The translations under genes and the position numbers were made by a program. Source: a virus (lineage: Duplodnaviria > Heunggongvirae > Uroviricota > Caudoviricetes). From it: a stretch of 10,708 nucleotides of DNA. The DNA lies in IMG/VR virus record IMGVR_UViG_2690316105_000022; one strand, given 5' to 3'. This document shows positions 1 through 10,708 of the stretch, piece after piece. The notes beneath the pieces are model-generated. The model searched no databases and had not been told where the DNA came from. It was given only the letters and a program-made list of their open reading frames with translations. Position 1 is the first letter of the stretch. The number at the start of each line of letters is the position of its first letter.

Positions 1-1539
1 TTATTCAGTCGGCAGTGCTACGCGCCAGGGGAGCAGTTCGCCGACCCGGTTTATCGGCCAGTCGGCTATGACGTCAAGGACATAGCGGAGGTAGCTTTCT
101 GGCTCCACTCCGTTCAGTTTGCACGTCCCGATCAGGCTGTACAGCAGCGCTCCCCGCTCTCCTCCATGATCCGAACCGAAGAACAGGTAGTTTTTGCGGC
201 CCAGACTGACCATCCGCAACGCATTTTCAGCGATGTTATTGTCCGCCTCAGCCCAGCCATCATCTGCATAGTACGTCAGCGCCGGCCACTGGTTCAGGGC
301 GTATGCGAACGCTTTCGCCAGTTCTGAGTGTCGCGACAGGGTTTTCATCTTTTCACGCAGCCAGCTTTCCAGGGATTTCAGCAGCGGTTTCGTTTTCAAC
401 TGACGTTCGGCAAGGCGCTGCTCCGCCGTCATTCCCCTTATCTCTGCCTCGATGGCGTACAGTTCGCCGATCCGTTTCAGCGCTTCCTCCGTCAGGGCTG
501 ACGGGGTGCGAACGTGCACATCGTGGATTTTACGGCGGGCGTGAGCCCAACAGGCGGCTTCCGTTATCCGGCCATCCCGGTACAGCTCGTTGAACCCGGC
601 GTATGCATCCGCCTGCAGTACACCACTGAACCCCGCAAGATGGGTCTGCGGATGGATGCCTTTTCTGTCCGGGCTGTAAGCGAACCACACCGCCGGCGCC
701 AGCGTTGACCCGGCGTTACGGTCGTCACGAACGTAGGTCCATAACCGCCCGGTCTTCGTTTTCTTATTGCCTGGCAACAGCACCGGGACAGGCGTGTCAT
801 CAGCATGGAGCTTACCGTCAGTCAGCACATAGTCCTGAAGCGCTTCTTCCAGCGGTGACAGTAGCCGGCAGCATGCATCCACCCAGCCCGACAGCAGTGA
901 ACGACTCAGCTCCACGCCCTGGCGGCCGTACATTTCAGACTGGCGGTACAGCGGGGTGTGCTCTGCATACTTTGAGATCAGCACGCGGGCCAGCAGCCCC
1001 GGTCCTGCGATACCCCGCTCGATGGGCCGTGAAGGCGCGGGGGCCTGCACGATGGCATCGCACTGAGTACAGGCATGCTTTTCACGTACAGTCCGGATAA
1101 CCCGGAAGGCGCTGCGCATCAGCTCCAGCTGTTCGGCGGCATCCTCACCCAGATAGCTCAGCGAGCCTCCACATTCCGGGCAGCATGACGCTGCCGGCAG
1201 CAGCCGTTTTTCATCGCGGGGGAGTGATTCGGGGAACGGTTTGCGGGTGCGGGTTTGACGCAGCGGGCGCTGCACGGCCGGGTCGTCAACCCGACCGGTA
1301 AGGGTATCACTTTCTTTCTGAAGTGCCTTCAGGTCAGCTTCCATCTGTGCGATACGACGGGAGACTTTTTCCGAGCGGCTGCCGAAGTTCATCCGGCGCA
1401 GCTTATCCAGCTGTGCCTGCAGATGGTCTATTTCGCGTTCACGCTCGTTCAGCTTTTCCTGCAGGGCACGGTTCAGCGCCTCCTGTTCGGCAAGGAGACG
1501 TTTCAGTGCATTGATATCGTCAGGAAGTGAGCTGCTCAT
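1..1539 (-). CDS. tnpC: IS66-family transposase TnpC (Orf3, DDE-type)
   Basis: 512-aa ORF with N-terminal coiled-coil/leucine-zipper-like region, a Cys-rich CCPECGG...CTQCD zinc-finger-like motif and a long catalytic region typical of IS66 Orf3 transposases; follows tnpB after a 48-nt gap. Confidence 0.9.
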
Positions 1540-1587: not shown

Positions 1588-1935
1588 TTACAACATAGTC
1601 AGGGACGTAAGCAGTCTTTTAGGCTGCCGCCAGTCGATACCTTCCAGCAGCATCGCCAGCTGTGCCGGTGTGAGGAACACTTTGCCATCCCGGGCTGACG
1701 GCCAGGCGAAGCGGCCGCGCTCCAGCCGTTTGGTCAGCAGACACAGTCCATCGCCGGTAGACCAGAGGAGCTTTACCTGACTGCCATTACGCCCACGGAA
1801 GATAAAAACGTGACCTGACATCGGATCGTCTTTCAGCGTCGTCTGCACCTTTGCCGCCAGGCCGTTGAAGCCGTTTCTCATATCGGTGATGCCAGCGACC
1901 AGCCAGATCTTTGTCCCTGAGGGTAATGGGATCAA
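1588..1935 (-). CDS. tnpB: IS66-family accessory protein TnpB (Orf2)
   Basis: 115-aa ORF (MIPLPSGTKIWLVAG...DMRNGFNGLAA...) matching the size and conserved N-terminal motif of IS66 Orf2; overlaps tnpA by 4 nt (ATGA). Confidence 0.88.
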   Translation of the reverse strand: MIPLPSGTKIWLVAGITDMRNGFNGLAAKVQTTLKDDPMSGHVFIFRGRNGSQVKLLWSTGDGLCLLTKRLERGRFAWPSARDGKVFLTPAQLAMLLEGIDWRQPKRLLTSLTML

Positions 1936-2336
1936 CGTTTGAGCTCCCGTATCAGCAGGTTCAGGATATTTTCGCTGATGGCACCATTCAGACGGAGTGA
2001 TCCGTGCCGGAACGTCACTTCACAGCTGATATTGAGTGATTCAGGTGTCGCAGCAGCTACAGGTTGTGACCGGGGGGAGGTTGTAGGGACAACATCTTCG
2101 GTATCAAGTGTTATCGGGAGCAGCTCAGGCACGTTGTTTTCTGTTGTTGAAGGAGGACGTAGTTTTCCTTCGCGCCAGTACTGGCGCCACTTGAACAGCA
2201 AATTATCGTTGATCCCATGCTCACGAGCGAGTTGCGCTACGGAGATCTCTGGTCGATGCGAGAGTTCAACCATTTTGATTTTGAACTCAACGGGATAATT
2301 AGGGCTTTTTTTACGCACTGCGGTTAATGATTTCAT
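1932..2336 (-). CDS. tnpA: IS66-family TnpA (Orf1, helix-turn-helix protein)
   Basis: 134-aa ORF first in the IS66 three-gene arrangement; the ISVAQLAREHGINDNLLFKWRQ segment looks like an HTH DNA-binding motif. Confidence 0.85.
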   Translation of the reverse strand: MKSLTAVRKKSPNYPVEFKIKMVELSHRPEISVAQLAREHGINDNLLFKWRQYWREGKLRPPSTTENNVPELLPITLDTEDVVPTTSPRSQPVAAATPESLNISCEVTFRHGSLRLNGAISENILNLLIRELKR

Positions 2337-2389
2337 GGATAGCGTCCACCATATTTGGTGTCCACTATTCTCTCAGGAATTTCAGGATC

Positions 2390-2417
2390 TGCCAGACGGT
2401 GCTGAGACGACGCTTAC
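2390..2417. repeat. Proximal terminal inverted repeat of the IS66-family element
   Basis: Minus-strand reading from 2417 inward gives GTAAGCGTCGTCTCAGCACCGTCTGGCA, beginning with the GTAAGCG motif recalled for IS66-family termini. The exact inner boundary is uncertain because the partner repeat is outside the window. Confidence 0.55.
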
Positions 2418-2419
2418 TC

Positions 2420-2725
2420 ATGAGCGAACCAAAATTTGGTGAAAAATTTTACAAGCACAACGTACGGATCACGATTCTGCAAATAAGCGCAGCTACACCA
2501 GGCTGGTGGGTTGAAACAGACGAAGGATCCTCACCCGTGGCATCATGGGCGCTTTGTGCGCTTAGTTACCCTGACAGCGATGTGTATCAGGATATTCTTC
2601 CTGTGATATCCACTGACAAAGGCATGAAACCCGTAGACATCAAAAACATGGGTTTTCAGTGCGTAATGCTCACTGAAAAAATGATGGAAGAGATGAAAAA
2701 GAACAACGCCGGATCGCTTCACTGA
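2420..2725 (+). CDS. Hypothetical protein; possibly the 3' remnant of a gene interrupted by the IS66 insertion
   Basis: The open frame runs without stops from inside the IS across the IS end to a TGA at 2723-2725, 9 nt before the SSB-like start. The first ATG outside the IS is at 2420, only 3 nt from the IS terminus, with no own ribosome-binding site. No family recognised. Confidence 0.35.
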   Translation: MSEPKFGEKFYKHNVRITILQISAATPGWWVETDEGSSPVASWALCALSYPDSDVYQDILPVISTDKGMKPVDIKNMGFQCVMLTEKMMEEMKKNNAGSLH

Positions 2726-2734
2726 GGTGGCAAT

Positions 2735-3145
2735 ATGACAGCACAAATTGCAGCTTACGGGCGGCTGGTGGACGACCCGCAGGTAAAACAGACCAGCAAG
2801 GGCACACCGATGACGCTGGCGCGTATGGCGGTATCGTTGCCATGCAGTCAGGCGCAGGACGGGCAGGCTACGTTATGGCTGTCGGTCCTGGCATTTGGCA
2901 AACAGGCCGACCAACTGGCAGGACATGAGAAAGGCAACGTAATCAGCGTATCCGGCGTGATGCAGGTCAGTCAGTGGACAGGACAGGACGGGGGGACGCG
3001 TCAGGGTTATCAGATTATTGCCGACAGCGTAATCAGTGCGAAAACGGTGAGACCAGGCGGCAGCAGACGCAAAACCACAGGCACACAGGGTAATCAGCCA
3101 CCAGCGGGAGGCGATGACCCTTACGGTGATGATATTCCGTTCTGA
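2735..3145 (+). CDS. ssb: Single-stranded DNA-binding protein (SSB-like)
   Basis: 136-aa ORF whose pattern (G.L..DP.V....G......A....W..V..FGK.A....KG..V...G.....WT.Q.G..R) aligns by eye to the E. coli SSB OB-fold, followed by a Gly/Pro/Gln-rich linker and a C-terminal acidic tip DDPYGDDIPF resembling the canonical SSB DDDIPF tail. RBS GAGGTGG lies 5-11 nt upstream of the ATG. Confidence 0.8.
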   Translation: MTAQIAAYGRLVDDPQVKQTSKGTPMTLARMAVSLPCSQAQDGQATLWLSVLAFGKQADQLAGHEKGNVISVSGVMQVSQWTGQDGGTRQGYQIIADSVISAKTVRPGGSRRKTTGTQGNQPPAGGDDPYGDDIPF

Positions 3146-3155
3146 GGGGGTGACG

Positions 3156-3428
3156 ATGGTACATGACCGCATAGCGGAAGAACTCGAAGCGAAAGGATTT
3201 TACCGGAGGGCGGCGGCGCGATGGGGTGAAGTTATGATGCTGGTGGAGACAGACAAGGAACGGCATCACATCACGATGCGACGGCTGGAATGTTCCAGGA
3301 AGGCACAGAGGCCACCGGAGACGGCGGATAATTACGGAGACCTGAAAAAGGCAGTCGATCGCACTTATGCCGAAATGGGGATAGATGGCGCTGGTGATGA
3401 AATATGGCGCAATTACCAGGACAGCTAA
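3156..3428 (+). CDS. Small transcriptional regulator, PerC-family-like (assignment from motif memory)
   Basis: 90-aa ORF starting MVHDRIAEELEAKGFYRRAAARW, resembling the A.ELE..GLWRRAA.RW signature I recall for PerC/Pch-type activators. RBS GAGGGGG is 6 nt upstream of the ATG at 3156; the start region overlaps the ssb stop. Followed by a terminator. Confidence 0.5.
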   Translation: MVHDRIAEELEAKGFYRRAAARWGEVMMLVETDKERHHITMRRLECSRKAQRPPETADNYGDLKKAVDRTYAEMGIDGAGDEIWRNYQDS

Positions 3429-3434
3429 TCACAC

Positions 3435-3458
3435 AGCCGGAGAAATCCGGCTTTTTTT
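3435..3458 (+). terminator. Rho-independent terminator after the PerC-like gene
   Basis: Perfect 7-bp stem AGCCGGA / TCCGGCT with GAAA tetraloop, followed by TTTTTT. Confidence 0.7.
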
Positions 3459-3553
3459 GCGCCAGTTGAAACGGTATGGCGCATTACCGGCTTTTCGTCA
3501 CGGTCCGGCATAGTTACTATCTGAAACAAACAGACACAACAGAGGAAAAAACA

Positions 3554-3778
3554 ATGCCGATGAAATTTGATGAGATATTAAAACAGCGTGATAAATACCA
3601 TGCTGACAACATGGAGACGATGAACATCAATGATTACCGCGCATTCCTGGAAACGGGCGCGCTAATCGAAAAGGATCGGCATGGATTTGTCAGATGTGCG
3701 CTATCCGGTGAAATGCTGGCAGTAAATCCTGAACAGATAGATGCATTGATAGAATTTCTGAAAGGGATCAGGGACTGA
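3554..3778 (+). CDS. Hypothetical small protein (74 aa), insulated cassette
   Basis: ORF starting MPMKFDEILKQ with a good RBS AGAGGA 7 nt upstream of the ATG at 3554. The 5' extension back to 3476 given by the ORF track is unlikely because it starts right after the preceding terminator. No recognisable family. Confidence 0.6.
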   Translation: MPMKFDEILKQRDKYHADNMETMNINDYRAFLETGALIEKDRHGFVRCALSGEMLAVNPEQIDALIEFLKGIRD

Positions 3779-3788
3779 GCACCCATAC

Positions 3789-3820
3789 AGCCGGAGCAAT
3801 CCGGCTTTTTGTTATTTTTT
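3789..3820 (+). terminator. Rho-independent terminator after the small ORF, near-duplicate of the terminator at 3435
   Basis: Stem AGCCGGA / TCCGGCT with GCAA tetraloop, followed by TTTTTGTTATTTTTT. The core ACAGCCGGAG[A/C]AATCCGGCTTTTT is shared with the terminator at 3431-3457. Confidence 0.7.
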
Positions 3821-3829
3821 GTAAATTAT

Positions 3830-3877
3830 TTGTTCGTGGTTGTTCCACGTTGTTCACTGAGCGGATCGGCATATTTT
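3830..3877 (+). promoter_or_regulatory. Phased TTGTTC triple direct repeat with possible sigma70-like promoter for the capsid operon
   Basis: TTGTTC occurs at 3830, 3840 and 3850, exactly 10 bp apart (TTGTTCgtggTTGTTCcacgTTGTTCactg). The third copy could serve as a -35 element, with TATTTT at 3872-3877 as a -10 after a 16-nt spacer. No transcription start data. Confidence 0.3.
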
Positions 3878-3931
3878 ACCCGAACTGAATCATGATTATT
3901 CTCGCCAGTGGTGCCAGGACGCTGGGGCCAC

Positions 3932-3979
3932 TTTCCCGCCTGTTAATGTGCTCACCAATATTCATTACCAGGCGGGAAA
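3932..3979. repeat. Long imperfect palindrome (17-bp arms, 14-nt spacer) in the capsid leader
   Basis: Left arm TTTCCCGCCTGTTAATG (3932-3948) and right arm CATTACCAGGCGGGAAA (3963-3979) are reverse complements with one mismatch. Confidence 0.6.
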
Positions 3980-4032
3980 ACGATCGGTGCGATTGCTGAT
4001 TTCCTTATGAAAAACGGTTGAGTTTTTACCGC

Positions 4033-4070
4033 GTCCTGGAGTTCCTTACTTAACCCCAGGACTTTTTTTT
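4033..4070 (+). terminator. Terminator-like hairpin plus T8 tract immediately abutting the capsid start codon
   Basis: Stem GTCCTGG (4033-4039) / CCAGGAC (4056-4062) with a 16-nt loop, followed by TTTTTTTT (4063-4070); the capsid ATG begins at 4071. The loop is long for an efficient intrinsic terminator, so function is uncertain. Confidence 0.4.
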
Positions 4071-5228
4071 ATGCCGAGAATAATCGAATTACGCCAGCAG
4101 AAAACCGCCATTAAAAATCAGATGCGCGACATGCTGGAGAACGCGGAAAAAGAAAACCGCAGCCTTAACGATGCAGAGGGCGCAAAATTTGACGAATTAC
4201 GCGCTAAAGCTGAATCCCTCGATAAAGACATTTCCCGCCTTGAAGCCATTGCAGACGAAGAGCGCAGCAAGCCAGGTAAAAGCAGCCAGACCACTGACCA
4301 GGCAGAACTCCGAAACTACATCCTGACAGGTGAAACCCGTGCATTAAGTACAGGTGTCCCCGCTGATGGTGGTTATACCGTTATCCCTGAACTGAACACC
4401 GAAATCATGCGAATACTGGCGGATGAGTCCACCATGCGCCGCATCTGTACCGTGAAAAAAATCAGCAGCAACGAGTTTAAGCAGCTTGTTTCCGCTGGCG
4501 GTGCGACCGTTAACCTCGGTGAAGAGGGTAAGGCACGCGAACAGACCAGCACCCCGCAGATTAACGAGGTGAGCATCAAGCTGTATCCGGTCTATGCGTA
4601 CCCGCGCACCACGCAGGAAATCGTGGATTTTTCCGATGTGGACATCCTTTCATGGCTGACGGGCGAGATTGGCGACACCTTCACGGAAACCGAAGAAAGC
4701 GATCTGGTTGTGGGCGACGGTGACAAAAAAGCAAAAGGCTTTTTATCCGTACCCCGTGCAGAGAAGAACGACAAAGAACGTGATTTTGGTACGTTGCAGG
4801 TAATTAAGCCTTCTGAGTCTCTTGCGTGGACATCTGCGGACCCGCTGATCGATCTGAAATTTGCATTACGTAAAAAATACCGCAAGAACGCGGTATGGGT
4901 GGTTAACTCCACGACGGCGGCAAAACTCCAGAAGGTGAAGAATGCGAACGGGGATTATATATGGCGTGACCGTTTACAGGCGGGTGATCCTGACACATTG
5001 CTGGGCCTTCCGGTCGAATATCTGGAGTTTATGCCGGATAACGTTATTGCCCTGGGTGACTTCAAACGCGGTTACTACATTGTTGATCACGAAACGGGTG
5101 TTCGCACCAGACCGGACAACCTGACAGAACCAGGATTCATCAAAATTTTCACGCAGAAATATTTAGGCGGTGGCGTGGTGGATTCGAACGCGATCAAGAT
5201 TCTGGAACTGCCACAGGACGACGATTAA
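4071..5228 (+). CDS. Major capsid protein, HK97-fold family, with N-terminal coiled-coil (delta/scaffolding-like) domain
   Basis: 385-aa ORF. The first ~70 residues are a charged, coiled-coil-like region (ELRQQKTAIKNQMRDMLENAEKENRSLNDAEGAKFDELRAKAESLDKDISRLEAIADEE) typical of HK97-type delta domains; the remainder has the size and motif feel of HK97-family capsid proteins. Sits directly upstream of a prohead protease and portal. Confidence 0.88.
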   Translation: MPRIIELRQQKTAIKNQMRDMLENAEKENRSLNDAEGAKFDELRAKAESLDKDISRLEAIADEERSKPGKSSQTTDQAELRNYILTGETRALSTGVPADGGYTVIPELNTEIMRILADESTMRRICTVKKISSNEFKQLVSAGGATVNLGEEGKAREQTSTPQINEVSIKLYPVYAYPRTTQEIVDFSDVDILSWLTGEIGDTFTETEESDLVVGDGDKKAKGFLSVPRAEKNDKERDFGTLQVIKPSESLAWTSADPLIDLKFALRKKYRKNAVWVVNSTTAAKLQKVKNANGDYIWRDRLQAGDPDTLLGLPVEYLEFMPDNVIALGDFKRGYYIVDHETGVRTRPDNLTEPGFIKIFTQKYLGGGVVDSNAIKILELPQDDD

Positions 5229-5238
5229 CAGCATACAG

Positions 5239-5269
5239 AAGGGGCTAAAAAGCCCCTTTAGTGTTTTAT
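5239..5269 (+). terminator. Hairpin with interrupted T tract after the capsid gene (possible partial terminator)
   Basis: 8-bp stem AAGGGGCT / AGCCCCTT with AAAA loop (5239-5258), followed by TAGTGTTTT. Confidence 0.45.
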
Positions 5270-5283
5270 GGGTGAAAAAAATT

Positions 5284-5841
5284 ATGAAGAGTATGGAAAT
5301 CCGGTCATCGGAAATCACCACCAGCGCCAGCAACACGCTGACGGGTTACGTTGTTCGCTGGAATAACCTTTCTGATCTGCTATGGGGTGAGTTTTACGAA
5401 AAATTTCAGCGGGGGGCGTTTACTGAGTGGCTTGCGGCGGGTAATGACGTTCGCGGCCTGTATGAGCATGACCACAGCATGTTACTGGGGCGCACCCGTT
5501 CCGGATCGCTGAAACTGGAAGAGGACGACACAGGGTTACGCTTTGAACTGACGCCACCGGATACCAGTACAGGGCGGGACGTTATCGAACTGGTTAAGCG
5601 TGGTGATATATCCGGCATGAGCTTTGGCTTTCGTTCCCGTAAGGATGTATGGGATACCACAACAGATCCATGCGTGCGCACTGTGCTGGTTGCGGAACTG
5701 TACGAAATTACCGTCACATCCGTACCGGCTTACCCTGATTCCGGCGTGGAGCTGGCCCGCCGTTCCCTGTACGAGCAGCACCCCGAAAAAATGCCGCGTG
5801 CGGATAATCGCCGCTGGTGGGCGGATTTAGCGGGGGTGTGA
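5284..5841 (+). CDS. Prohead maturation protease, HK97 family (S78/U35-like)
   Basis: The ORF contains LTGYVVRWN...GAF...DVRGLYEHDHSMLLGRTRSGSLKLEEDDTGLRFEL..P.T..GRDVIELVKRGDISGMSFGFR...TVPAYPDSGVEL, closely resembling HK97-type prohead protease motifs as I recall them. Start chosen at the ATG at 5284, downstream of the capsid stop; the track's 5170 start would overlap the capsid gene. Confidence 0.82.
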   Translation: MKSMEIRSSEITTSASNTLTGYVVRWNNLSDLLWGEFYEKFQRGAFTEWLAAGNDVRGLYEHDHSMLLGRTRSGSLKLEEDDTGLRFELTPPDTSTGRDVIELVKRGDISGMSFGFRSRKDVWDTTTDPCVRTVLVAELYEITVTSVPAYPDSGVELARRSLYEQHPEKMPRADNRRWWADLAGV

Positions 5842-5842
5842 T

Positions 5843-7054
5843 ATGTGGCCTTTCAGAAGAAAAAAAGAGCAGCGCAGCATGACGCTTGATGAATTTATGG
5901 CGCTGGCTGGCACATCGAACACGGGGGCGGGTGAGTACGTATCATCGGGGACAGCGGAATCACTCCCCGCCGTCATGAACGCCGTCACGGTCATCTCTGA
6001 GGCGGTGGCTACTATGCCATGCTACCTGTACCTGGTACGCAATGAGAAGGGGAAGGAGGCCCGCGAGTGGCTTGATTCTCATCCGGTCGATCATATCCTC
6101 AACGAGCGCCCGAACGCATGGCAAACCCCCTACCAGTTTAAGCGAATGATGATCCGCCACTGCCTGTTAAACGGTAATGCTTACGCGGTGATTCAGTGGG
6201 GGCGTGATGGTTTTCCGGCGGCTTTACATCCTTACCCGCCGCAGTCGGTGAACGTGGAGCAGACAGGAGAACACAACTGGCGCTATTGCATCACTGACGC
6301 CTACACCGGAAACACCCGCAACTATTTACCGTGGGAAGTACTTCACCTTCGTTACTCCACGGATGACGGCTTTATGGGGCGCTCACCTGTAACCATCTGC
6401 CGCGAATCGCTGGGGCTTGGGCTGGCCCAACAACGCCACGGCGCGAGCGTGATGCGTGATGGCATGATGGCGGCAGGGGTTATCACGTCAGGCGAATGGC
6501 TGGACGGCGTGAAGGGCAAACAGGCATTAGCCGCACTGGAACGCTATAAAGGGGCCAAAAACGCCGGAAAAACGCCCATCCTTGAAGGGGGCATGAGTTA
6601 CCAGCAGCTGGGCATGAGTAACCAGGACGCCGAATGGCTGGCCTCCCGTCGCTTCACCATTGAAGACATCGCCCGAATGTTCAACGTCTCGCCGATTTTT
6701 CTGCAGGAATACAGCAACAGCACCTACAGCAATTTCAGCGAGGCAAGCCGCGCATTTCTCACCATGACGATGCGCCCGTGGCTGGCGAACTTTGAGCAGC
6801 AGATAAAAAACGCCTTGCTGGTGGTCTCGCCTGTACCTGGTATCCGGTATCAGGTGGAGTTTGACAGCGCGGACCTGTTACGGGCCACACCTGGCGAACG
6901 CTTTGCCACCTATGAGCGAGGCATCAAATCCGGTGTTATGTGCCCGAACGAAGCCCGCGAACGAGAAGGGTTGTCTCCGCGTGATGGTGGTGATGAGTTC
7001 AGCCAGGCATGGAAACAGGAAGTAAAAATCAGCGAGGGAGAAAAACCGGAATGA
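5843..7054 (+). CDS. Portal protein, HK97 family
   Basis: 403-aa ORF of portal size and character lying between the protease and head-completion genes. RBS-like GGGGG is 6 nt upstream; the start is 2 nt after the protease stop. Confidence 0.85.
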   Translation: MWPFRRKKEQRSMTLDEFMALAGTSNTGAGEYVSSGTAESLPAVMNAVTVISEAVATMPCYLYLVRNEKGKEAREWLDSHPVDHILNERPNAWQTPYQFKRMMIRHCLLNGNAYAVIQWGRDGFPAALHPYPPQSVNVEQTGEHNWRYCITDAYTGNTRNYLPWEVLHLRYSTDDGFMGRSPVTICRESLGLGLAQQRHGASVMRDGMMAAGVITSGEWLDGVKGKQALAALERYKGAKNAGKTPILEGGMSYQQLGMSNQDAEWLASRRFTIEDIARMFNVSPIFLQEYSNSTYSNFSEASRAFLTMTMRPWLANFEQQIKNALLVVSPVPGIRYQVEFDSADLLRATPGERFATYERGIKSGVMCPNEAREREGLSPRDGGDEFSQAWKQEVKISEGEKPE

Positions 7055-7389
7055 ACATAGGGCGACTGCGTGACAGGGTAACGATTCAGACCCTGAAACA
7101 GACCAGAGCCATGACGGGCGAAATACTCGAAACGTGGGAGGACGGTCACACACTCTGGGCAAGCGTGAACATGGTCAGCAGCAAGGAGTCCATTTCATCG
7201 GGTGCAGAGCTGGCGATTGGTACCGTAAGGATCTGGATACGGTACCGGAAGGACATTAACGCCACCAGCCGGATAAAGGTCAATACGGGGCCGCTGGCGG
7301 GGCGTGTACTGAATATCATCGGGCAGCCGCTGCCGGATGCCGCCAGGACACGCCTTGAAATTCTTTGTCGTGAGGGCGCGGAAAAATGA
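7051..7389 (+). CDS. Head-tail adaptor / head closure protein (Phage_H_T_join-like)
   Basis: 112-aa ORF starting MNIGRLRDRVTIQ with W...LWASV and IWIRYRKDI...RI motifs typical of head closure proteins. The ATG at 7051 overlaps the portal stop (ATGA), suggesting translational coupling. Confidence 0.7.
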   Translation: MNIGRLRDRVTIQTLKQTRAMTGEILETWEDGHTLWASVNMVSSKESISSGAELAIGTVRIWIRYRKDINATSRIKVNTGPLAGRVLNIIGQPLPDAARTRLEILCREGAEK

Positions 7390-7682
7390 CAGAAGAACTT
7401 ATCACCCTGGAAGAAGTGAAACTCCATTGCCGCATCGATGGCGACGAGGAAGACCAGTTAATCAGCGGATACATTGCCGCATCGCTTGAGGCGTGCCAGA
7501 TACACATAGGCAGGCGCTTTGATGACGGGCTGGAGTTCACGCCAGCCATAAAGATTGGCTGCATGATGTTTATCGCTCACCTGTATGAGAATCGCCAGAT
7601 TGTCGCGGATAACGCAAAAACACACGTACCCATGACGATTGGCGCACTCTGGACGGCTTACCGTGATGTGGGGGTGTACTGA
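7386..7682 (+). CDS. gp6-like head-tail connector protein
   Basis: 98-aa ORF starting MTEELITLEEVKLHCRIDGDEEDQLISGYIAASLEA, matching the I.LEE.K.HLRID.D.ED.LI...I.AA pattern of gp6-like connector proteins. Start overlaps the preceding stop (ATGA). Confidence 0.7.
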   Translation: MTEELITLEEVKLHCRIDGDEEDQLISGYIAASLEACQIHIGRRFDDGLEFTPAIKIGCMMFIAHLYENRQIVADNAKTHVPMTIGALWTAYRDVGVY

Positions 7683-8122
7683 TGCCGTGGCAACCATTAA
7701 GACGATGTACAGAACCAGGCTGCAACAGGCGCGTGAAGTCCGGCAAGTGTGAGGAGCACAGACGCAGCGCACGCCAGCAGCAGGACAGCCGGAGAGGCAG
7801 CAGCAGGGAGCGAGGGTATACGAGGCAGTGGGAGAAATACCGCGCCATGTATCTGAGTAAAAACCCGTTATGTGCGCATTGCCTGGAAAAAGGAATATAC
7901 ACGCCCGCCGTGGTGGTGGATCACATTATCCCAATCGATGGCGGTAATGATGTTCTCTTCTGGCCTGAGTGGAATCATCAGCCATTGTGCCAGGCGTGTC
8001 ATAACCAGAAAACGAAATGGCTTGATCCGTCCACAAAAAACAAGCGTGCTGCGGGTGGATTCCGTGAGGAGGAAGAACGGGCCGCTAACCGCAATAACTG
8101 GATGTATGGCGCTGATGAATGA
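7682..8122 (+). CDS. HNH endonuclease (terminase-associated type)
   Basis: 146-aa ORF with paired Cys motifs (CTEPGC, CAHC, CQAC) and an HNH core VDHIIPIDGGND...WNHQPLCQACHNQKT, located immediately upstream of terS/terL. Start overlaps the preceding stop (TGATG). Confidence 0.88.
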   Translation: MPWQPLRRCTEPGCNRRVKSGKCEEHRRSARQQQDSRRGSSRERGYTRQWEKYRAMYLSKNPLCAHCLEKGIYTPAVVVDHIIPIDGGNDVLFWPEWNHQPLCQACHNQKTKWLDPSTKNKRAAGGFREEEERAANRNNWMYGADE

Positions 8123-8288
8123 GCGGGAACAAAACCGCCTTATCCGTGGACTTATAAGGCAGCGTGACGCATGGAAGGCACAGGAAACAGGGCATAAAGA
8201 TAAAGCATCAGGACGCGCAGAACGCATCACAGCGACGCGATTAAACGACCGTGACCGCGAGGTTATGGAATGTTTCCGCAATCGCTGA
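8115..8288 (+). CDS. Hypothetical small basic protein (57 aa), uncertain
   Basis: ATG at 8115 overlaps the HNH stop (ATGAATGA) and the ORF runs to a TGA at 8286-8288; an alternative ATG lies at 8106. It fills the otherwise non-coding gap between HNH and the GC-rich intergenic region. No strong RBS and no recognisable family. Confidence 0.3.
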   Translation: MNEREQNRLIRGLIRQRDAWKAQETGHKDKASGRAERITATRLNDRDREVMECFRNR

Positions 8289-8411
8289 TGAGGCAGCCGG
8301 ACGGGGTGGGGGGAGTTTTCAGGACGAACCCGACCCCGCCCAGAACCGAACGCCTCCCCAAATTTTTATGCACGGTAATTTTTTGAAAAATAATCTGGCG
8401 AAAAAATAAGC
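8289..8411. other. Candidate cos / packaging-recognition region upstream of terS
   Basis: GC-rich block with G-runs and complementary C-runs (CGGGGTGGGGGGAG at 8302-8315; CCCGACCCCGCCC at 8329-8341; CGCCTCCCC at 8351-8359), followed by an AT-rich segment (AAATTTTTATGCACGGTAATTTTTTGAAAAATAATCTGGCGAAAAAATAAG) ending at the terS start. Position between HNH and terS is where cos sites sit in HK97-like cos phages. Confidence 0.3.
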
Positions 8412-8768
8412 ATGGCAAGACCACCGAAAGCCCCCGCCTACCTGGATGATATCGCCGTGAAGCAGTGGCGGGAAAAATCGCGGCAGCTTGCGGAACGGGG
8501 AGACCTGACCCCTGCCGACTGGAGTAATCTGGAACTGTATTGCGTCAATTACTCGATATACAGGAAAGCCGTCGCAGACCTTGCGGCGCGCGGGTTCAGC
8601 ATTGTTAACAGTCAGGGCGGAGAGAGCAGAAACCCCGCATTAAGCGCGAAATCCGACGCGGAAAGAGTGATGATAAAAATGGCCTCTTTGCTCGGTTTTG
8701 ACCCGATAAGCCGCCGTAAAAATCCACCGGAAACAGAAGAAGAGGACGAGCTTGACCGCCTGGAATAA
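8412..8768 (+). CDS. terS: Terminase small subunit, P27 family-like
   Basis: 118-aa ORF with the L..YC..Y......A.......G......G.......NP pattern and a C-terminal acidic tail, consistent with P27-family small terminases. Lies directly upstream of, and overlapping, the large terminase gene. Confidence 0.8.
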   Translation: MARPPKAPAYLDDIAVKQWREKSRQLAERGDLTPADWSNLELYCVNYSIYRKAVADLAARGFSIVNSQGGESRNPALSAKSDAERVMIKMASLLGFDPISRRKNPPETEEEDELDRLE

Positions 8769-10413
8769 GTACGCAGAAGACGTAAAAACGGGCAAAATTC
8801 CGGCCTGTAAACGGCTGAAACAGGCCGTTAAACGGTACTTTTCGGACCTTGAAAACCCCCTTTACATGTTCGATCGTGAGGTTGTTGAGCGGTTTATTGC
8901 CTTTCCCAGGGTGTGCCCGCACGTAAAAGGGCCGATGCGTGGAAGACCCATTGAGCTGGAACCGTGGCAGCAGTTTGCCTTTGCGTGCATCCTCGGCTTT
9001 AAGGTTAAGGCCACCGGAAGGCGCAAATACACGAGCGCCTTTATCGAAGTGCCGCGCAAAAATGCGAAATCCACGACAGCCGCGATTCTGGCTAACTGGT
9101 TTCTGATTATGGAGAACGGGCAGCAGGATATTTACACCGCAGCGGTGAGCCGCGACCAGGCGCGGATCGTTTTTGATGATGCGCGTCAGATGTGCCTTTT
9201 ATCCCGACCGTTACGCAAGAGAGTGAATATTCAGGCCCACAAGGTGATGCACCCGAAAAGCAACAGCCTGTTAAAGCCGCTGGCAGCAAAAGCGGCAACC
9301 ATCGAGGGTACTAACCCCAGCCTTGCCATTGTGGACGAATACCACTTACACCCCGATAACGGCGTTTATTCTGCGCTTGAACTGGGGATGGGGGCACGTC
9401 CCGAAGGGCTGTTATTTGCCATTACCACATCAGGCAGCAACGTCGTTTCAGCCTGTAAACAGCACTATGATTATTGCTGCCAGATCCTGGACGGCGAAGA
9501 GGTCAACGATTCAATTTTTGTACTGATTTACGAACTGGACGACGAAAACGAGGTTGATGATCCGGAGATGTGGATAAAGGCGAACCCTAATATTGATGTT
9601 TCCGTGGATCGTGAAAAACTGGCCTCAACCATCCAGAAAGCGCGGGGCATACCGTCGCAATGGGTGGAGATGATGACAAAGCGATTTAATATCTGGTGTC
9701 AGGGGGCTACCCCGTGGATGGGTAACGGAGCATGGGCTGAGTGCGCCGGAAAGTTCACGGAGGAAGATTTACACGGTCAGGAATGTTACGCGGGGCTGGA
9801 TTTATCATCCACAAGCGACATTTCCAGCGTGTGCTATGCCTTTCCGGTCGGTAAAAATATCATGCTGGTTTCCCGTCATTATCTGCCGGAGTTCCAGTTA
9901 CAGAACCCAGCCAATAAAAATCGCGCTATCTATCGCCAGTGGGCACGGGCGGGATGGATACGCACAACGCCAGGGGACTGCATTGATTACGACCGGATAC
10001 GTGATGACATCATGCAGGACGCGGAAAAATTTAATATCAGGCTGGTGGGCTTCGATACGTGGAACGCAACGCATCTCAGGACGCAATTACAGGGGGCAGG
10101 CTTTGAGGTGGAGCCGTTCCCGCAAACCTACCTTCGATTCAGTCCGGCGGCGAAATCGTTCGAAGTTTTTGTTAACCGCAGGGTTATCGTGCATCGTGGT
10201 GATCCGGTGTTGTCCTGGTCGATGAGTAACGTCGTGATGCAGAGTGACGCGAACGCCAATATCAAGCCGAACAAGAAAAAATCACCGAACAAGATAGACC
10301 CGAGCGTGGCGGCACTGATGGCGTTTGGTACATTCCAGGCAGAGCATGAGGATTTTGCTTTTGATATAAGCGACAGCCACCGCCAAAAACTGGAAGAATT
10401 TAGCGGGGTGTAA
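8752..10413 (+). CDS. terL: Terminase large subunit (ATPase plus nuclease)
   Basis: 553-aa ORF with a Walker A-like motif (VPRKNAKSTTAAI), a Walker B-like LAIVDEYH segment and a C-terminal nuclease-like region. Overlaps the terS 3' end by 17 nt. Confidence 0.9.
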   Translation: MTAWNKYAEDVKTGKIPACKRLKQAVKRYFSDLENPLYMFDREVVERFIAFPRVCPHVKGPMRGRPIELEPWQQFAFACILGFKVKATGRRKYTSAFIEVPRKNAKSTTAAILANWFLIMENGQQDIYTAAVSRDQARIVFDDARQMCLLSRPLRKRVNIQAHKVMHPKSNSLLKPLAAKAATIEGTNPSLAIVDEYHLHPDNGVYSALELGMGARPEGLLFAITTSGSNVVSACKQHYDYCCQILDGEEVNDSIFVLIYELDDENEVDDPEMWIKANPNIDVSVDREKLASTIQKARGIPSQWVEMMTKRFNIWCQGATPWMGNGAWAECAGKFTEEDLHGQECYAGLDLSSTSDISSVCYAFPVGKNIMLVSRHYLPEFQLQNPANKNRAIYRQWARAGWIRTTPGDCIDYDRIRDDIMQDAEKFNIRLVGFDTWNATHLRTQLQGAGFEVEPFPQTYLRFSPAAKSFEVFVNRRVIVHRGDPVLSWSMSNVVMQSDANANIKPNKKKSPNKIDPSVAALMAFGTFQAEHEDFAFDISDSHRQKLEEFSGV

Positions 10414-10426
10414 TGAGGTCAGCAGC

Positions 10427-10708
10427 ATGACAGAAGCCGAAATACTGCGATTAATCCGCCGCGTCTCTGGAATCAGCCAGCAGCATGACGAACAGGCCAC
10501 GCAGCCGGACAGCGTGACCGCCGAAAATTATGCGCGTGTTGTTGCTGAGGTGATGCGCCGTGATGGTATCCAGCTTAATGATGTGGATATGCGCAACATA
10601 CGGATCCGCGTTCTTGAAATGCTGGCCTACCGTCGCCGCGTGCAGACGTACAGGGAAAAAGCAAAAATTACGTACCACTGGAAGAAGCCGGAGCGGTTAC
10701 GGCGGTAA
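10427..10708 (+). CDS. Hypothetical protein (93 aa), basic C-terminus
   Basis: ORF with RBS GAGGT 7 nt upstream of the ATG at 10427, beginning 13 nt after the terL stop; the stop codon coincides with the last three bases of the window. No recognisable family. Confidence 0.55.
   Translation: MTEAEILRLIRRVSGISQQHDEQATQPDSVTAENYARVVAEVMRRDGIQLNDVDMRNIRIRVLEMLAYRRRVQTYREKAKITYHWKKPERLRR

Follow-up and report, generated by a model that had tools for sequence, protein, structure and literature searches.

An ISEc22-interrupted segment that very probably represents the head-and-packaging half of an EcCIEDL933-type cf-PICI

The window (the whole stretch of 10,708 nucleotides analysed here, virus record IMGVR_UViG_2690316105_000022) begins with a minus-strand insertion sequence and continues, from 2418 to its end, with genes that all lie on the plus strand: a 101-aa ORF, an SSB, a PerC-family regulator, a 74-aa ORF, a nine-gene packaging module and a 93-aa ORF. 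All domain assignments below were significant in Pfam and PHROGs profile searches.

1–2417, minus: ISEc22 (IS66 family), interrupting the island (Pfam DDE_Tnp_IS66 5.2e-107, TnpB_IS66 1.6e-38, HTH_Tnp_1 9.3e-12)
1–1539, 1588–1935 and 1932–2336, minus: TnpC, TnpB and TnpA genes of ISEc22
2420–2725, plus: 101-aa conserved hypothetical, first island gene past the IS (97% identical to the L001 homologue)
2735–3145, plus: SSB, tail end of the island replication region (PF00436 3.8e-15, phrog_44 3.3e-36)
3156–3428 (alternative start 3114), plus: PerC-family regulator (PF06069 5.8e-43)
3435–3452, plus: terminator-like hairpin past PerC, AGCCGGAGAAATCCGGCT then a T-run
3554–3778, plus: 74-aa conserved hypothetical (phrog_1957 2.1e-40)
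3789–3806, plus: second terminator-like hairpin, near-identical to the first
4071–5228, plus: major capsid protein, HK97 fold (PF05065, Phage_capsid, 3.2e-61)
5238–5259, plus: strong terminator-like hairpin directly 3' of the capsid gene
5284–5841 (alternative start 5170), plus: prohead maturation serine protease, S78 (PF04586 3.6e-47)
5843–7054, plus: portal protein (PF04860 3e-90)
7051–7389 (alternative start 7009), plus: head-closure protein Hc1, Phage_HCP, termed 'head-tail adaptor' in papers on cf-PICIs (PF05521 1.5e-22, phrog_25)
7386–7682, plus: gp6-like protein Ad1, the 'head-tail connector' of cf-PICI papers (PF05135 3.2e-12, phrog_40)
7682–8122, plus: HNH endonuclease, terminase accessory factor for cos cleavage (PF01844 9.4e-08, phrog_144 4.4e-43)
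8106–8288, plus: 60-aa ORF, homologue of EcCIEDL933 gene 1792, ninth packaging-module gene (called in the source contig)
8301–8393, plus: candidate cos/terminase-recognition region (conserved spacer motifs and the ends of LR881103)
8412–8768, plus: small terminase subunit TerS, P27 family (PF05119, Terminase_4, 1.3e-23)
8752–10413, plus: large terminase subunit TerL, ATPase and nuclease (PF03354 2.5e-26, PF20441 8.8e-50)
10427–10708, plus: 93-aa conserved hypothetical, the island's last gene (89% identical to EcCIEDL933's final ORF)

The gene calls of an earlier sequence-only reading, and its order of capsid, protease, portal, adaptor, gp6-like connector, HNH, terS and terL, hold at these positions in both Pfam and PHROGs. 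Its gene list was correct as far as it went, but lacked the 60-aa ORF at 8106–8288 between HNH and terS. Tail, baseplate, lysis, integrase and repressor genes are all absent from the window. The statement that every gene is a head, packaging, regulatory or unknown one applies to most of them, but not to the first, the SSB, which is a replication-type protein. The 101-aa and 93-aa ORFs gave no match in Pfam or PADLOC. For the protease and the head-closure protein, the likelier starts are 5284 and 7051, in agreement with the RefSeq annotation of relatives.

The proposed contrast with the standard HK97 order is borne out by the HK97 record (terS, terL, portal, protease, capsid, Ad1, Hc1, tail genes and, last, HNH) and by ST64B. 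HK97-like phages, such as HK97 and the helper HK106, share with the window island the HK97-fold capsid, the S78 protease, the portal, the Ad1/Hc1 neck and the HNH-assisted TerS/TerL cos packaging. On the packaged linear genome, HK97 also shows the same arrangement of HNH, cos and terS-terL, with HNH and terS adjacent across cos, and a putative terminator follows its capsid gene at the same relative position as the hairpin in the window. However, the morphogenesis genes of the window are reversed in gene order, although not in orientation, and lie upstream of HNH-terS-terL, and on the packaged genome they are separated from terL by integration, regulation and replication genes. Unlike these phages, the island holds no tail, lysis or immunity genes. 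At the protein level, identity to HK97 is 48% for the head-closure protein (against gp7), 28% for TerL and 26% for the portal, while the capsid has no match to that of HK97 at E≤1e-4.

Whether the permuted order matches published examples had been left unconfirmed; it is in fact the conserved order already published for proteobacterial cf-PICIs. It is also found in elements of Shigella, Xenorhabdus and Pasteurella and in Klebsiella-type elements, in each case with a primase gene upstream. The possibility that it is common among complete phages was pursued as well: among records with a related capsid, it is restricted to satellite-sized ones of 15–17 kb, true phages show the standard order, and no complete phage combining a related capsid with the window-type order was found, the nearest phage capsids being at most 37% identical.

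The closest characterized element is EcCIEDL933, the prototype cf-PICI, from E. coli O157:H7 EDL933 (Alqurainy et al., bioRxiv 10.1101/2022.09.08.507074; He et al., bioRxiv 10.1101/2025.02.11.637232), for which own heads, packaging of its own DNA and borrowed tails have been proven by genetics, EM and cryo-EM. It resides between roxA and phoQ in NZ_CP008957.1 and shares 94.7% DNA identity with the segment over 7,987 nt, which supports the earlier proposal of a capsid-forming satellite with borrowed tails. From SSB through to the 93-aa ORF at the end, every gene has its counterpart in the same order, including the PerC, 74-aa and 60-aa ORFs. The nine packaging proteins are 88–100% identical (TerS 100%, Ad1 99%, portal 98.8%, capsid 98.7%, TerL 97%, Hc1 95.5%, protease 95%, 60-aa ORF 93%, HNH 88%), and the other products reach 97% (74-aa ORF), 89% (SSB and 93-aa ORF) and 88% (PerC). 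Against the cryo-EM model of the EcCIEDL933 capsid (PDB 9GYI), 380 of 385 residues of the window capsid are identical and five differ; the EcCIEDL933 protein builds a small T=4 capsid, in contrast to T=7 in HK97-like phages. The att cores of both islands are related (CGGTGTAGT...GGTGTAGT), but the integration sites differ, the window island lying in tqsA. Nucleotide homology starts only at window 2724, and the gene 5' of SSB encodes 101 aa in the window versus an unrelated 83-aa ORF in EcCIEDL933 (22% identity in a forced global alignment). Moreover, the window copy, unlike EcCIEDL933, is interrupted by ISEc22 and split in the assembly from int, alpA and the primase gene.

Classical Gram-negative PICIs, exemplified by EcCICFT073 and EcCIED1a, have the left half (int, alpA, rep) in common with EcCIEDL933, as well as PerC-like cargo. 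However, they have no portal, adaptor, connector or TerL, and their capsids are made by the helper. In SatelliteFinder, these four components are forbidden for PICIs and are the distinguishing core components of cfPICIs. PerC-like genes are common cargo of Gram-negative PICIs, and the copy from EcCIEDL933 has been reported to have no effect on LEE1.

Still closer in sequence are the tqsA cf-PICIs carried by O103:H2, O121 and related E. coli strains (e.g., NZ_CP031908.1, 2464509–2480242), which exhibit 98.2% DNA identity to window 2418–10692 and share its attachment site, att repeat and genes. These intact 15.7-kb islands, flanked by 23-nt att repeats, are complete with int, an AlpA-like HTH regulator, Icd-like and DUF4222 genes and primase, and are free of the IS, unlike the window copy. 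The 15 island ORFs of the window are 91–100% identical to those of a complete island, and all 15 are intact and free of frameshifts. Among complete E. coli genomes, 359 of 5,426 carry 80% or more of the segment.

Extension of the contig, suggested in the sequence-only reading, gave different results on both sides. On the right, no tail or lysis genes follow position 10708; instead, the attR repeat appears 442 nt beyond the window end, followed by a 5' fragment of tqsA, ydgV, mdtJ, mdtI and ydgD, a context also seen in closed chromosomes. On the left, ISEc22 is followed by plasmid-type senB DNA, and neither the window nor as much of the source contig as could be read holds int, alpA, the primase gene or attL. 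Taken together, sequence comparison makes it very probable that window 2418–10708 is the head-and-packaging, right-hand (3') half of an EcCIEDL933-type cf-PICI located in tqsA of an Escherichia-type chromosome. The element has been published before, as has its unusual gene order, and the segment belongs to a known cf-PICI type; the novelty is minor and lies in the ISEc22 cut at 2417/2418 and the draft-assembly join to plasmid-type senB DNA.

Several noncoding blocks are conserved among these elements. The block TTTTTGTAAATTATTTG (3816–3832), 3' of the second hairpin, is maintained from Escherichia to Xenorhabdus and is a candidate for controlling the packaging operon. In the HNH-terS spacer, a G-rich block ACGGGGTGGGGGGAG (8301–8315) and an AT-rich block AAATTTTTATGCACGGTAATTTTTTGAAAAATAA (8360–8393) are kept in Escherichia, Xenorhabdus and Pasteurella elements, where the flanking proteins are only 53–76% identical. 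The linear record LR881103, whose ends may not be true termini, stops at the position corresponding to window 8325 and starts just 5' of terS. These features suggest that cos lies in this spacer, at approximately 8301–8393.

By analogy with EcCIEDL933, where the mechanism has been shown, and given protein identities of 88–100%, a helper phage would induce the island via the island's AlpA regulator, leading to excision and replication. The nine-gene module would then build small T=4 HK97-fold heads, and a complex of TerS, TerL and HNH is expected to cut the island's own cos and to package only island DNA into them. The filled tail-less heads would be joined to helper-made tails to form complete particles, with the adaptor and connector proteins predicted to decide which helper tails fit. 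Mutation of gene 1792 in EcCIEDL933, the homologue of the 60-aa ORF, has been shown to severely reduce transfer.

The insertion sequence deserves separate consideration. The window starts 37 nt inside the 2,454-bp ISEc22, whose terminal repeat ends ...GACGCTTAC at 2417, and homology to the intact islands begins directly after it, at 2418. Many complete E. coli genomes hold full-length copies annotated as ISEc22 (99.9% identity), with a median of three places per genome. The insertion point is an ATGA downstream of the primase gene, where the stop and start codons of two small genes overlap; in intact copies, these are the stop codon of an 83-aa island gene and the ATG of the 101-aa gene downstream of it. 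Comparison of the flanks in contig CXET01000061.1 revealed no 8-bp target-site duplication, since the left flank of the IS reads TTTTGTTT and the right one TCATGAGC. The sequence to the left of the IS, with senB and a Tn3 tnpA fragment, has 99.8% matches in E. coli plasmids, where a related IS66-family copy bears a clean TTTTGTTT duplication; this copy is about 100% identical to the window's IS over the left ~690 bp and 70–90% further right. The IS/island junction of the window was found in no complete E. coli genome. The senB-IS-island join is either a rearrangement or a misassembly. As the int-alpA-primase half is not contiguous with the segment and the left flank is of plasmid type, the window copy may be immobile.

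These data raise the question of whether the copy, although a cf-PICI by descent, is a dead remnant, in which a rearrangement mediated by ISEc22 deleted or moved attL, int, alpA and the replication genes, abolishing autonomous excision, replication and induction. This is a substantial possibility, if somewhat short of an even chance. The unmatched IS flanks, the plasmid-type left side with its cleanly duplicated IS relative and a junction seen in no complete E. coli genome all point in this direction, and elsewhere copies have decayed, as in Rosenbergiella L014, where portal and TerL are fused. However, the intactness of all 15 ORFs argues for a recent interruption or continued selection. The senB join may also be a short-read misassembly through a repeat, because ISEc22 is multi-copy and the sequence breaks off 29 nt into the IS end in an independent Logan assembly of ERR028700, and the int-primase half may sit on another contig behind a simple, ORF-sparing insertion. 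This alternative concerns the functional state of the copy only, and not its identity as a cf-PICI.

Two other origins are very improbable. The presence of HK97-type families in all structural proteins, together with the similarity of the head-closure protein to gp7, would fit a defective HK97-like prophage decaying after the loss of its tail, lysis and immunity genes. Nevertheless, this reading is already contradicted by the recurrence of the tail-less, att-bounded architecture of ~15–16 kb, intact in hundreds of genomes and across several genera, by a gene order that no related phage has, by the low identity (at most 37%) of the nearest phage capsids, by attR so soon after the last gene, and by the experiments establishing the near-identical EcCIEDL933 as a satellite. 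No more credible is a plasmid-borne or phage-plasmid head module, despite senB and a Tn3 remnant adjoining the IS and the existence of CP088587.1, a 32.6-kb record listed under E. coli plasmids in which 92% of the segment is covered at 94.8%. The right flank is chromosomal, CP088587.1 is the only one of 72,556 plasmid records to hold most of the segment, and all but three of the 969 cfPICIs reported by SatelliteFinder sit on chromosomes.

The island part of the window (2418–10708) belongs to an already described lineage of cf-PICIs (phage-inducible chromosomal islands of the capsid-forming kind), in which it represents a close allele of the prototype EcCIEDL933 (bioRxiv 10.1101/2022.09.08.507074; 10.1101/2025.02.11.637232) with the published gene order. 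The ORF map and profile searches divide the window into two parts: the genes of an IS66-family element at 1–2417, on the minus strand, and the island genes from 2418 to the end, all on the plus strand. The E-values of the profile matches range from 1e-12 to 1e-116, so that chance is no concern for the gene assignments, and the gene list and order as first read from the sequence were correct.

Features of the window; percentages are identities to the EcCIEDL933 proteins.
1–1539, minus strand: TnpC of the IS66-family element
1588–1935, minus strand: TnpB of the IS66-family element
1932–2336, minus strand: TnpA of the IS66-family element
Ending at 2417: IS terminal repeat, ending ...GACGCTTAC
2420–2725, plus strand: 101-aa ORF
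2735–3145, plus strand: SSB
3156–3428, plus strand: PerC-family regulator
3554–3778, plus strand: 74-aa ORF
4071–5228, plus strand: major capsid protein (98.7%)
5284–5841, plus strand: S78 prohead protease (95.3%)
5843–7054, plus strand: portal (98.8%)
7051–7389, plus strand: head-closure protein Hc1, the "adaptor" of the cf-PICI literature (95.5%)
7386–7682, plus strand: gp6-like Ad1, the "connector" (99%)
7682–8122, plus strand: HNH endonuclease (88%)
8106–8288, plus strand: 60-aa ORF between HNH and terS, homologue of EcCIEDL933 gene 1792 (93%)
8412–8768, plus strand: TerS (100%)
8752–10413, plus strand: TerL (97.1%)
10427–10708, plus strand: 93-aa ORF

The packaging module is complete, since all eight cf-PICI genes have significant Pfam and PHROG matches, and it also holds the ninth small ORF. 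All 15 island ORFs are intact. The sequence-only reading named the module genes correctly but overlooked the 60-aa ORF, and its description of the range from 2735 as containing only head, packaging, regulatory, or unknown genes applies to most of them, but not to the first, which encodes an SSB. The starts of the protease and Hc1 genes also need correction, and are probably at 5284 and 7051. No tail or lysis genes were found in the window by Pfam and PHROGs profile searches, no Rfam family reached its gathering threshold over the whole window, and a PADLOC scan for defence systems of the 101-, 42-, 74-, 60-, and 93-aa ORFs, SSB, and PerC returned nothing except a negligible HNH match.

EcCIEDL933, which is located between roxA and phoQ in the EDL933 chromosome, shares 94.7% DNA identity over 7,987 nt with window positions 2724–10708, and the gene set and order are identical from SSB and PerC through the terminal 93-aa ORF. 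The capsid matches 380 of 385 residues of PDB 9GYI, the model of the EcCIEDL933 capsid according to its authors. The earlier proposal of a capsid-forming satellite is thus supported. By definition, cf-PICIs possess their own capsid, protease, portal, head–tail adaptor, head–tail connector, HNH, TerS, and TerL, lack genes for tails and lysis (holins), and are about 10–18 kb in size. Their left end carries an integrase, an AlpA regulator, and a primase-replicase module, and att repeats flank the element; gene 1792, the small ORF in the HNH–terS interval, is the ninth module gene in EcCIEDL933. SatelliteFinder treats tails and holins as forbidden components of the cfPICI family, whose members are reported in 13% of Enterobacteriaceae genomes.

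On the right side, the surroundings agree with this assignment. An exact-protein search with the TerL of the window led to the source contig (CXET01000061.1, GCA_001249235.1), in which the window is locus L003, 1250–11957. There, the window end and attR, a repeat of 23 nt (CGGTGTAGTCACTGGTGTAGTCA), are 442 nt apart, and attR is followed by a tqsA 5' fragment, ydgV, mdtJ, mdtI, and ydgD; host genes, and not the tail and lysis genes of a normal prophage, therefore follow position 10708. On the left, the contig turns to plasmid-type DNA at the insertion sequence, and within it int, alpA, primase, and attL are not contiguous with the window copy, of which the contig shows about 8.7 kb, between the IS and attR. 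The DNA of this segment recurs at 98.2% identity in closed E. coli genomes, where it makes up the right-hand half of an island of 15.7 kb in tqsA, bounded by the same 23-nt repeat. In these 98%-identical relatives, attL is present, and the left half encodes an integrase of the tyrosine type, an HTH protein resembling AlpA, Icd-like and DUF4222 proteins, and a primase. No tail or lysis genes occur from att to att in the complete relatives, including EcCIEDL933 (about 15.2–15.4 kb). Among 5,426 complete genomes of E. coli, 359 (~7%) contain at least 80% of the segment.

The order of the genes, which the sequence-only reading had taken as permuted, is the one published for proteobacterial cf-PICIs: capsid, protease, portal, and head connectors, and then hnh–terS–terL. 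The window shares it with EcCIEDL933, Shigella, Xenorhabdus, vB_KppS-Ant, and Pmp8. In the phage collection, capsids more than 40% identical occur only in records of 15–17 kb (vB_KppS-Ant and Pmp8), both with this order, whereas true phages, with capsids at most 37% identical, keep the standard one; among the relatives compared, the arrangement is consequently not the norm of a complete phage family. Among species-representative genomes, Shigella flexneri, Xenorhabdus innexi, and a decayed Rosenbergiella element encode capsids 67–98% identical, in the order of the window and downstream of a primase gene. On the other hand, Bacillota relatives (capsid at most 33% identical) show the order TerL, portal, capsid, Ad1, Hc1, which is also followed by those genes that matched in Rhodovulum. 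A third arrangement—portal, capsid, HNH, about 2 kb of other DNA, TerS, and TerL—is observed in two uncultured Bartonella MAGs (L019, 7657–15280, and L021, 314–7935), whose capsid homologue is distant (30% identical).

Two other identities were considered for the element. An HK97-like temperate prophage would carry tail, lysis, and immunity genes; here, tail and lysis genes are absent, and the gene order differs from those of HK97 and ST64B. The HK97 record shows the series that the sequence-only reading had given for HK97-like phages (terS, terL, portal, protease, capsid, Ad1, Hc1); tail genes come next, and HNH is last before the right end. A gene-transfer agent was likewise rejected, given the TerS, the HNH, the conserved cos-like site, the lack of tail genes, and the att-flanked, mobile nature of the island. 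It had been considered because, after EcCIEDL933, the solved structures nearest in sequence to the capsid (4071–5228) are the Rhodobacter capsulatus GTA capsids (6tb9 and 6tba; E ~4e-47), not HK97.

Two of the relatives deserve separate mention. The element of Rosenbergiella sp. YN46 (L014, 4158–7129) is a decayed cf-PICI that retains primase, SSB, capsid, and protease, and in which the portal ends after ~252 residues and runs straight into the final 83 residues of TerL; the adaptor, the connector, HNH, TerS, and the greater part of TerL have been lost through this internal deletion. The 16.5-kb record LR881103.1 is filed as 'Escherichia phage vB_KppS-Ant', but is in fact a cf-PICI-type satellite. 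The gene after its terL (2036–4333) sits in the variable accessory slot behind the packaging module, and its annotation as 'tail length tape measure protein' is probably wrong.

The cohesive-end site would be placed in the spacer between HNH and terS, at window positions 8301–8393. LR881103, a linear record, starts just before terS and stops just past HNH and a small ORF, with its end aligning to window position 8325. The spacer contains a G-rich block (ACGGGGTGGGGGG, also written ACGGGGTGGGGGGAG) at 8301–8315 and an AT-rich block (AAATTTTTATGCACGGTAATTTTTTGAAAAATAA) at 8360–8393, both kept in Escherichia, Xenorhabdus, and Pasteurella elements whose flanking proteins are only 53–76% identical. 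No published cos mapping for such elements was found in the cf-PICI literature examined. If this candidate site is cos, the arrangement HNH / cos / terS–terL is the same as in HK97, and the real difference from HK97 would be that the morphogenesis genes are reversed and placed after the integration and replication genes.

Regarding the mechanism, EcCIEDL933 is induced in an AlpA-dependent manner by the helpers HK106 and HK446, forms T=4 capsids that are island-encoded, and exclusively packages its own DNA. Mutation of any module gene abolishes transfer, while the helper is unaffected by such mutations; helper tail genes are required, and the tail-less capsids that are released are able to acquire the tails of other phages. 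With protein identities of 88–100%, the window copy, if active, would be predicted to follow the same course of induction, assembly of small capsids of its own, self-packaging, and use of helper tails. cf-PICIs are a recent discovery, of interest for making their own heads and for spreading across species via the tails of different phages. The window adds nothing to this picture, since its gene order has already been published as a hallmark of the family. Its value lies rather in annotation, where such regions should be labelled as cf-PICIs and not as 'incomplete prophages'.

The insertion sequence is ISEc22 (2,454 bp), with the tnpA–tnpB–tnpC trio, GTAAGCG terminal repeats, and the end GTAAGCGTGCAGC; full-length copies 99.9% identical are found in many closed genomes. 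Its insertion point coincides exactly with the ATGA in which the stop codon of the 83-aa island gene overlaps the start codon of the 101-aa one, so that a simple insertion would break no ORF. The exact IS/island junction is absent from the complete E. coli genomes and GTDB species-representative genomes searched, which makes the insertion strain-specific. The left flank of the IS in the contig is not island DNA, but senB/tieB and what is left of a Tn3 tnpA, with 99.8% identity to plasmids of E. coli (NZ_JBLWMF010000004.1, for instance); this plasmid-type DNA and the IS together occupy L003 1–3666. These plasmids carry a related IS copy with a clean TTTTGTTT duplication. That the contig IS is an artificial hybrid was considered because its identity to the plasmid IS falls from 100% to ~70% along its length, and was rejected: all 2,454 bp match annotated ISEc22 at 99.9%, so that the copy on the plasmids is just another variant.

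The 8-bp flanks of the contig IS are unequal (TTTTGTTT on the left, after the Tn3 fragment, and TCATGAGC on the right), with no 8-bp target duplication, which leaves two explanations. Two ISEc22 copies may have recombined, thereby stranding the packaging half of the island; alternatively, the short-read assembly may have joined two contexts through the repeat, in which case nothing more than a simple insertion is present in the island. An independent Logan assembly (ERR028700), which has a single base difference from the contig over 11.6 kb, stops 29 nt into the end of the IS. If the join were real, an intact module comprising nine genes, cos, and attR would be fused to senB DNA; that the join is real and that such a module has been preserved for acting in trans or in situ seems highly improbable. 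Were this the case, it might provide small capsids to another cf-PICI of the same cell or compete with that element for them, or might initiate the cos-dependent packaging of neighbouring chromosomal DNA while still integrated. The question concerns the assembly of one strain and not a new kind of system, and the copy illustrates that half an island can come to resemble an isolated tail-less head module through the insertion of an IS and assembly from short reads.

The packaging genes are bordered by several potential control signals. A strong terminator-like hairpin directly follows the capsid gene (5238–5259, plus strand), as it does in HK97, and two near-identical plus-strand hairpins, likewise strong and terminator-like (AGCCGGAG[A/C]AATCCGGCT followed by a T-run), lie after the PerC gene (3435–3452) and the 74-aa ORF (3789–3806). 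A sigma-70 promoter scan detected no plus-strand promoter ahead of the capsid gene (3806–4071), and its overall yield, 6 against 7.8 expected, was at or below chance. The packaging operon therefore probably relies on an activator, read-through, or anti-termination. Upstream of the capsid gene, the block TTTTTGTAAATTATTTG (3816–3832) is shared by elements ranging from Escherichia to Xenorhabdus. The copies of Escherichia and Shigella also have a hairpin (GTCCTGG...CCAGGAC plus T8, about 4030–4070) that abuts the ATG of the capsid gene and covers part of its probable ribosome-binding site, hinting at translational or transcriptional control.

The module protein most similar to HK97 is Hc1 (7051–7389), 48% identical to gp7 (HK97 5545–5880); TerL and portal are 26–28% identical to their HK97 counterparts, and the capsid yields no tblastn match at E ≤ 1e-4. 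The adaptor and connector have been reported to decide tail compatibility, and this role in tail choice fits with the tail-facing Hc1 resembling the helper more than the rest of the module does.
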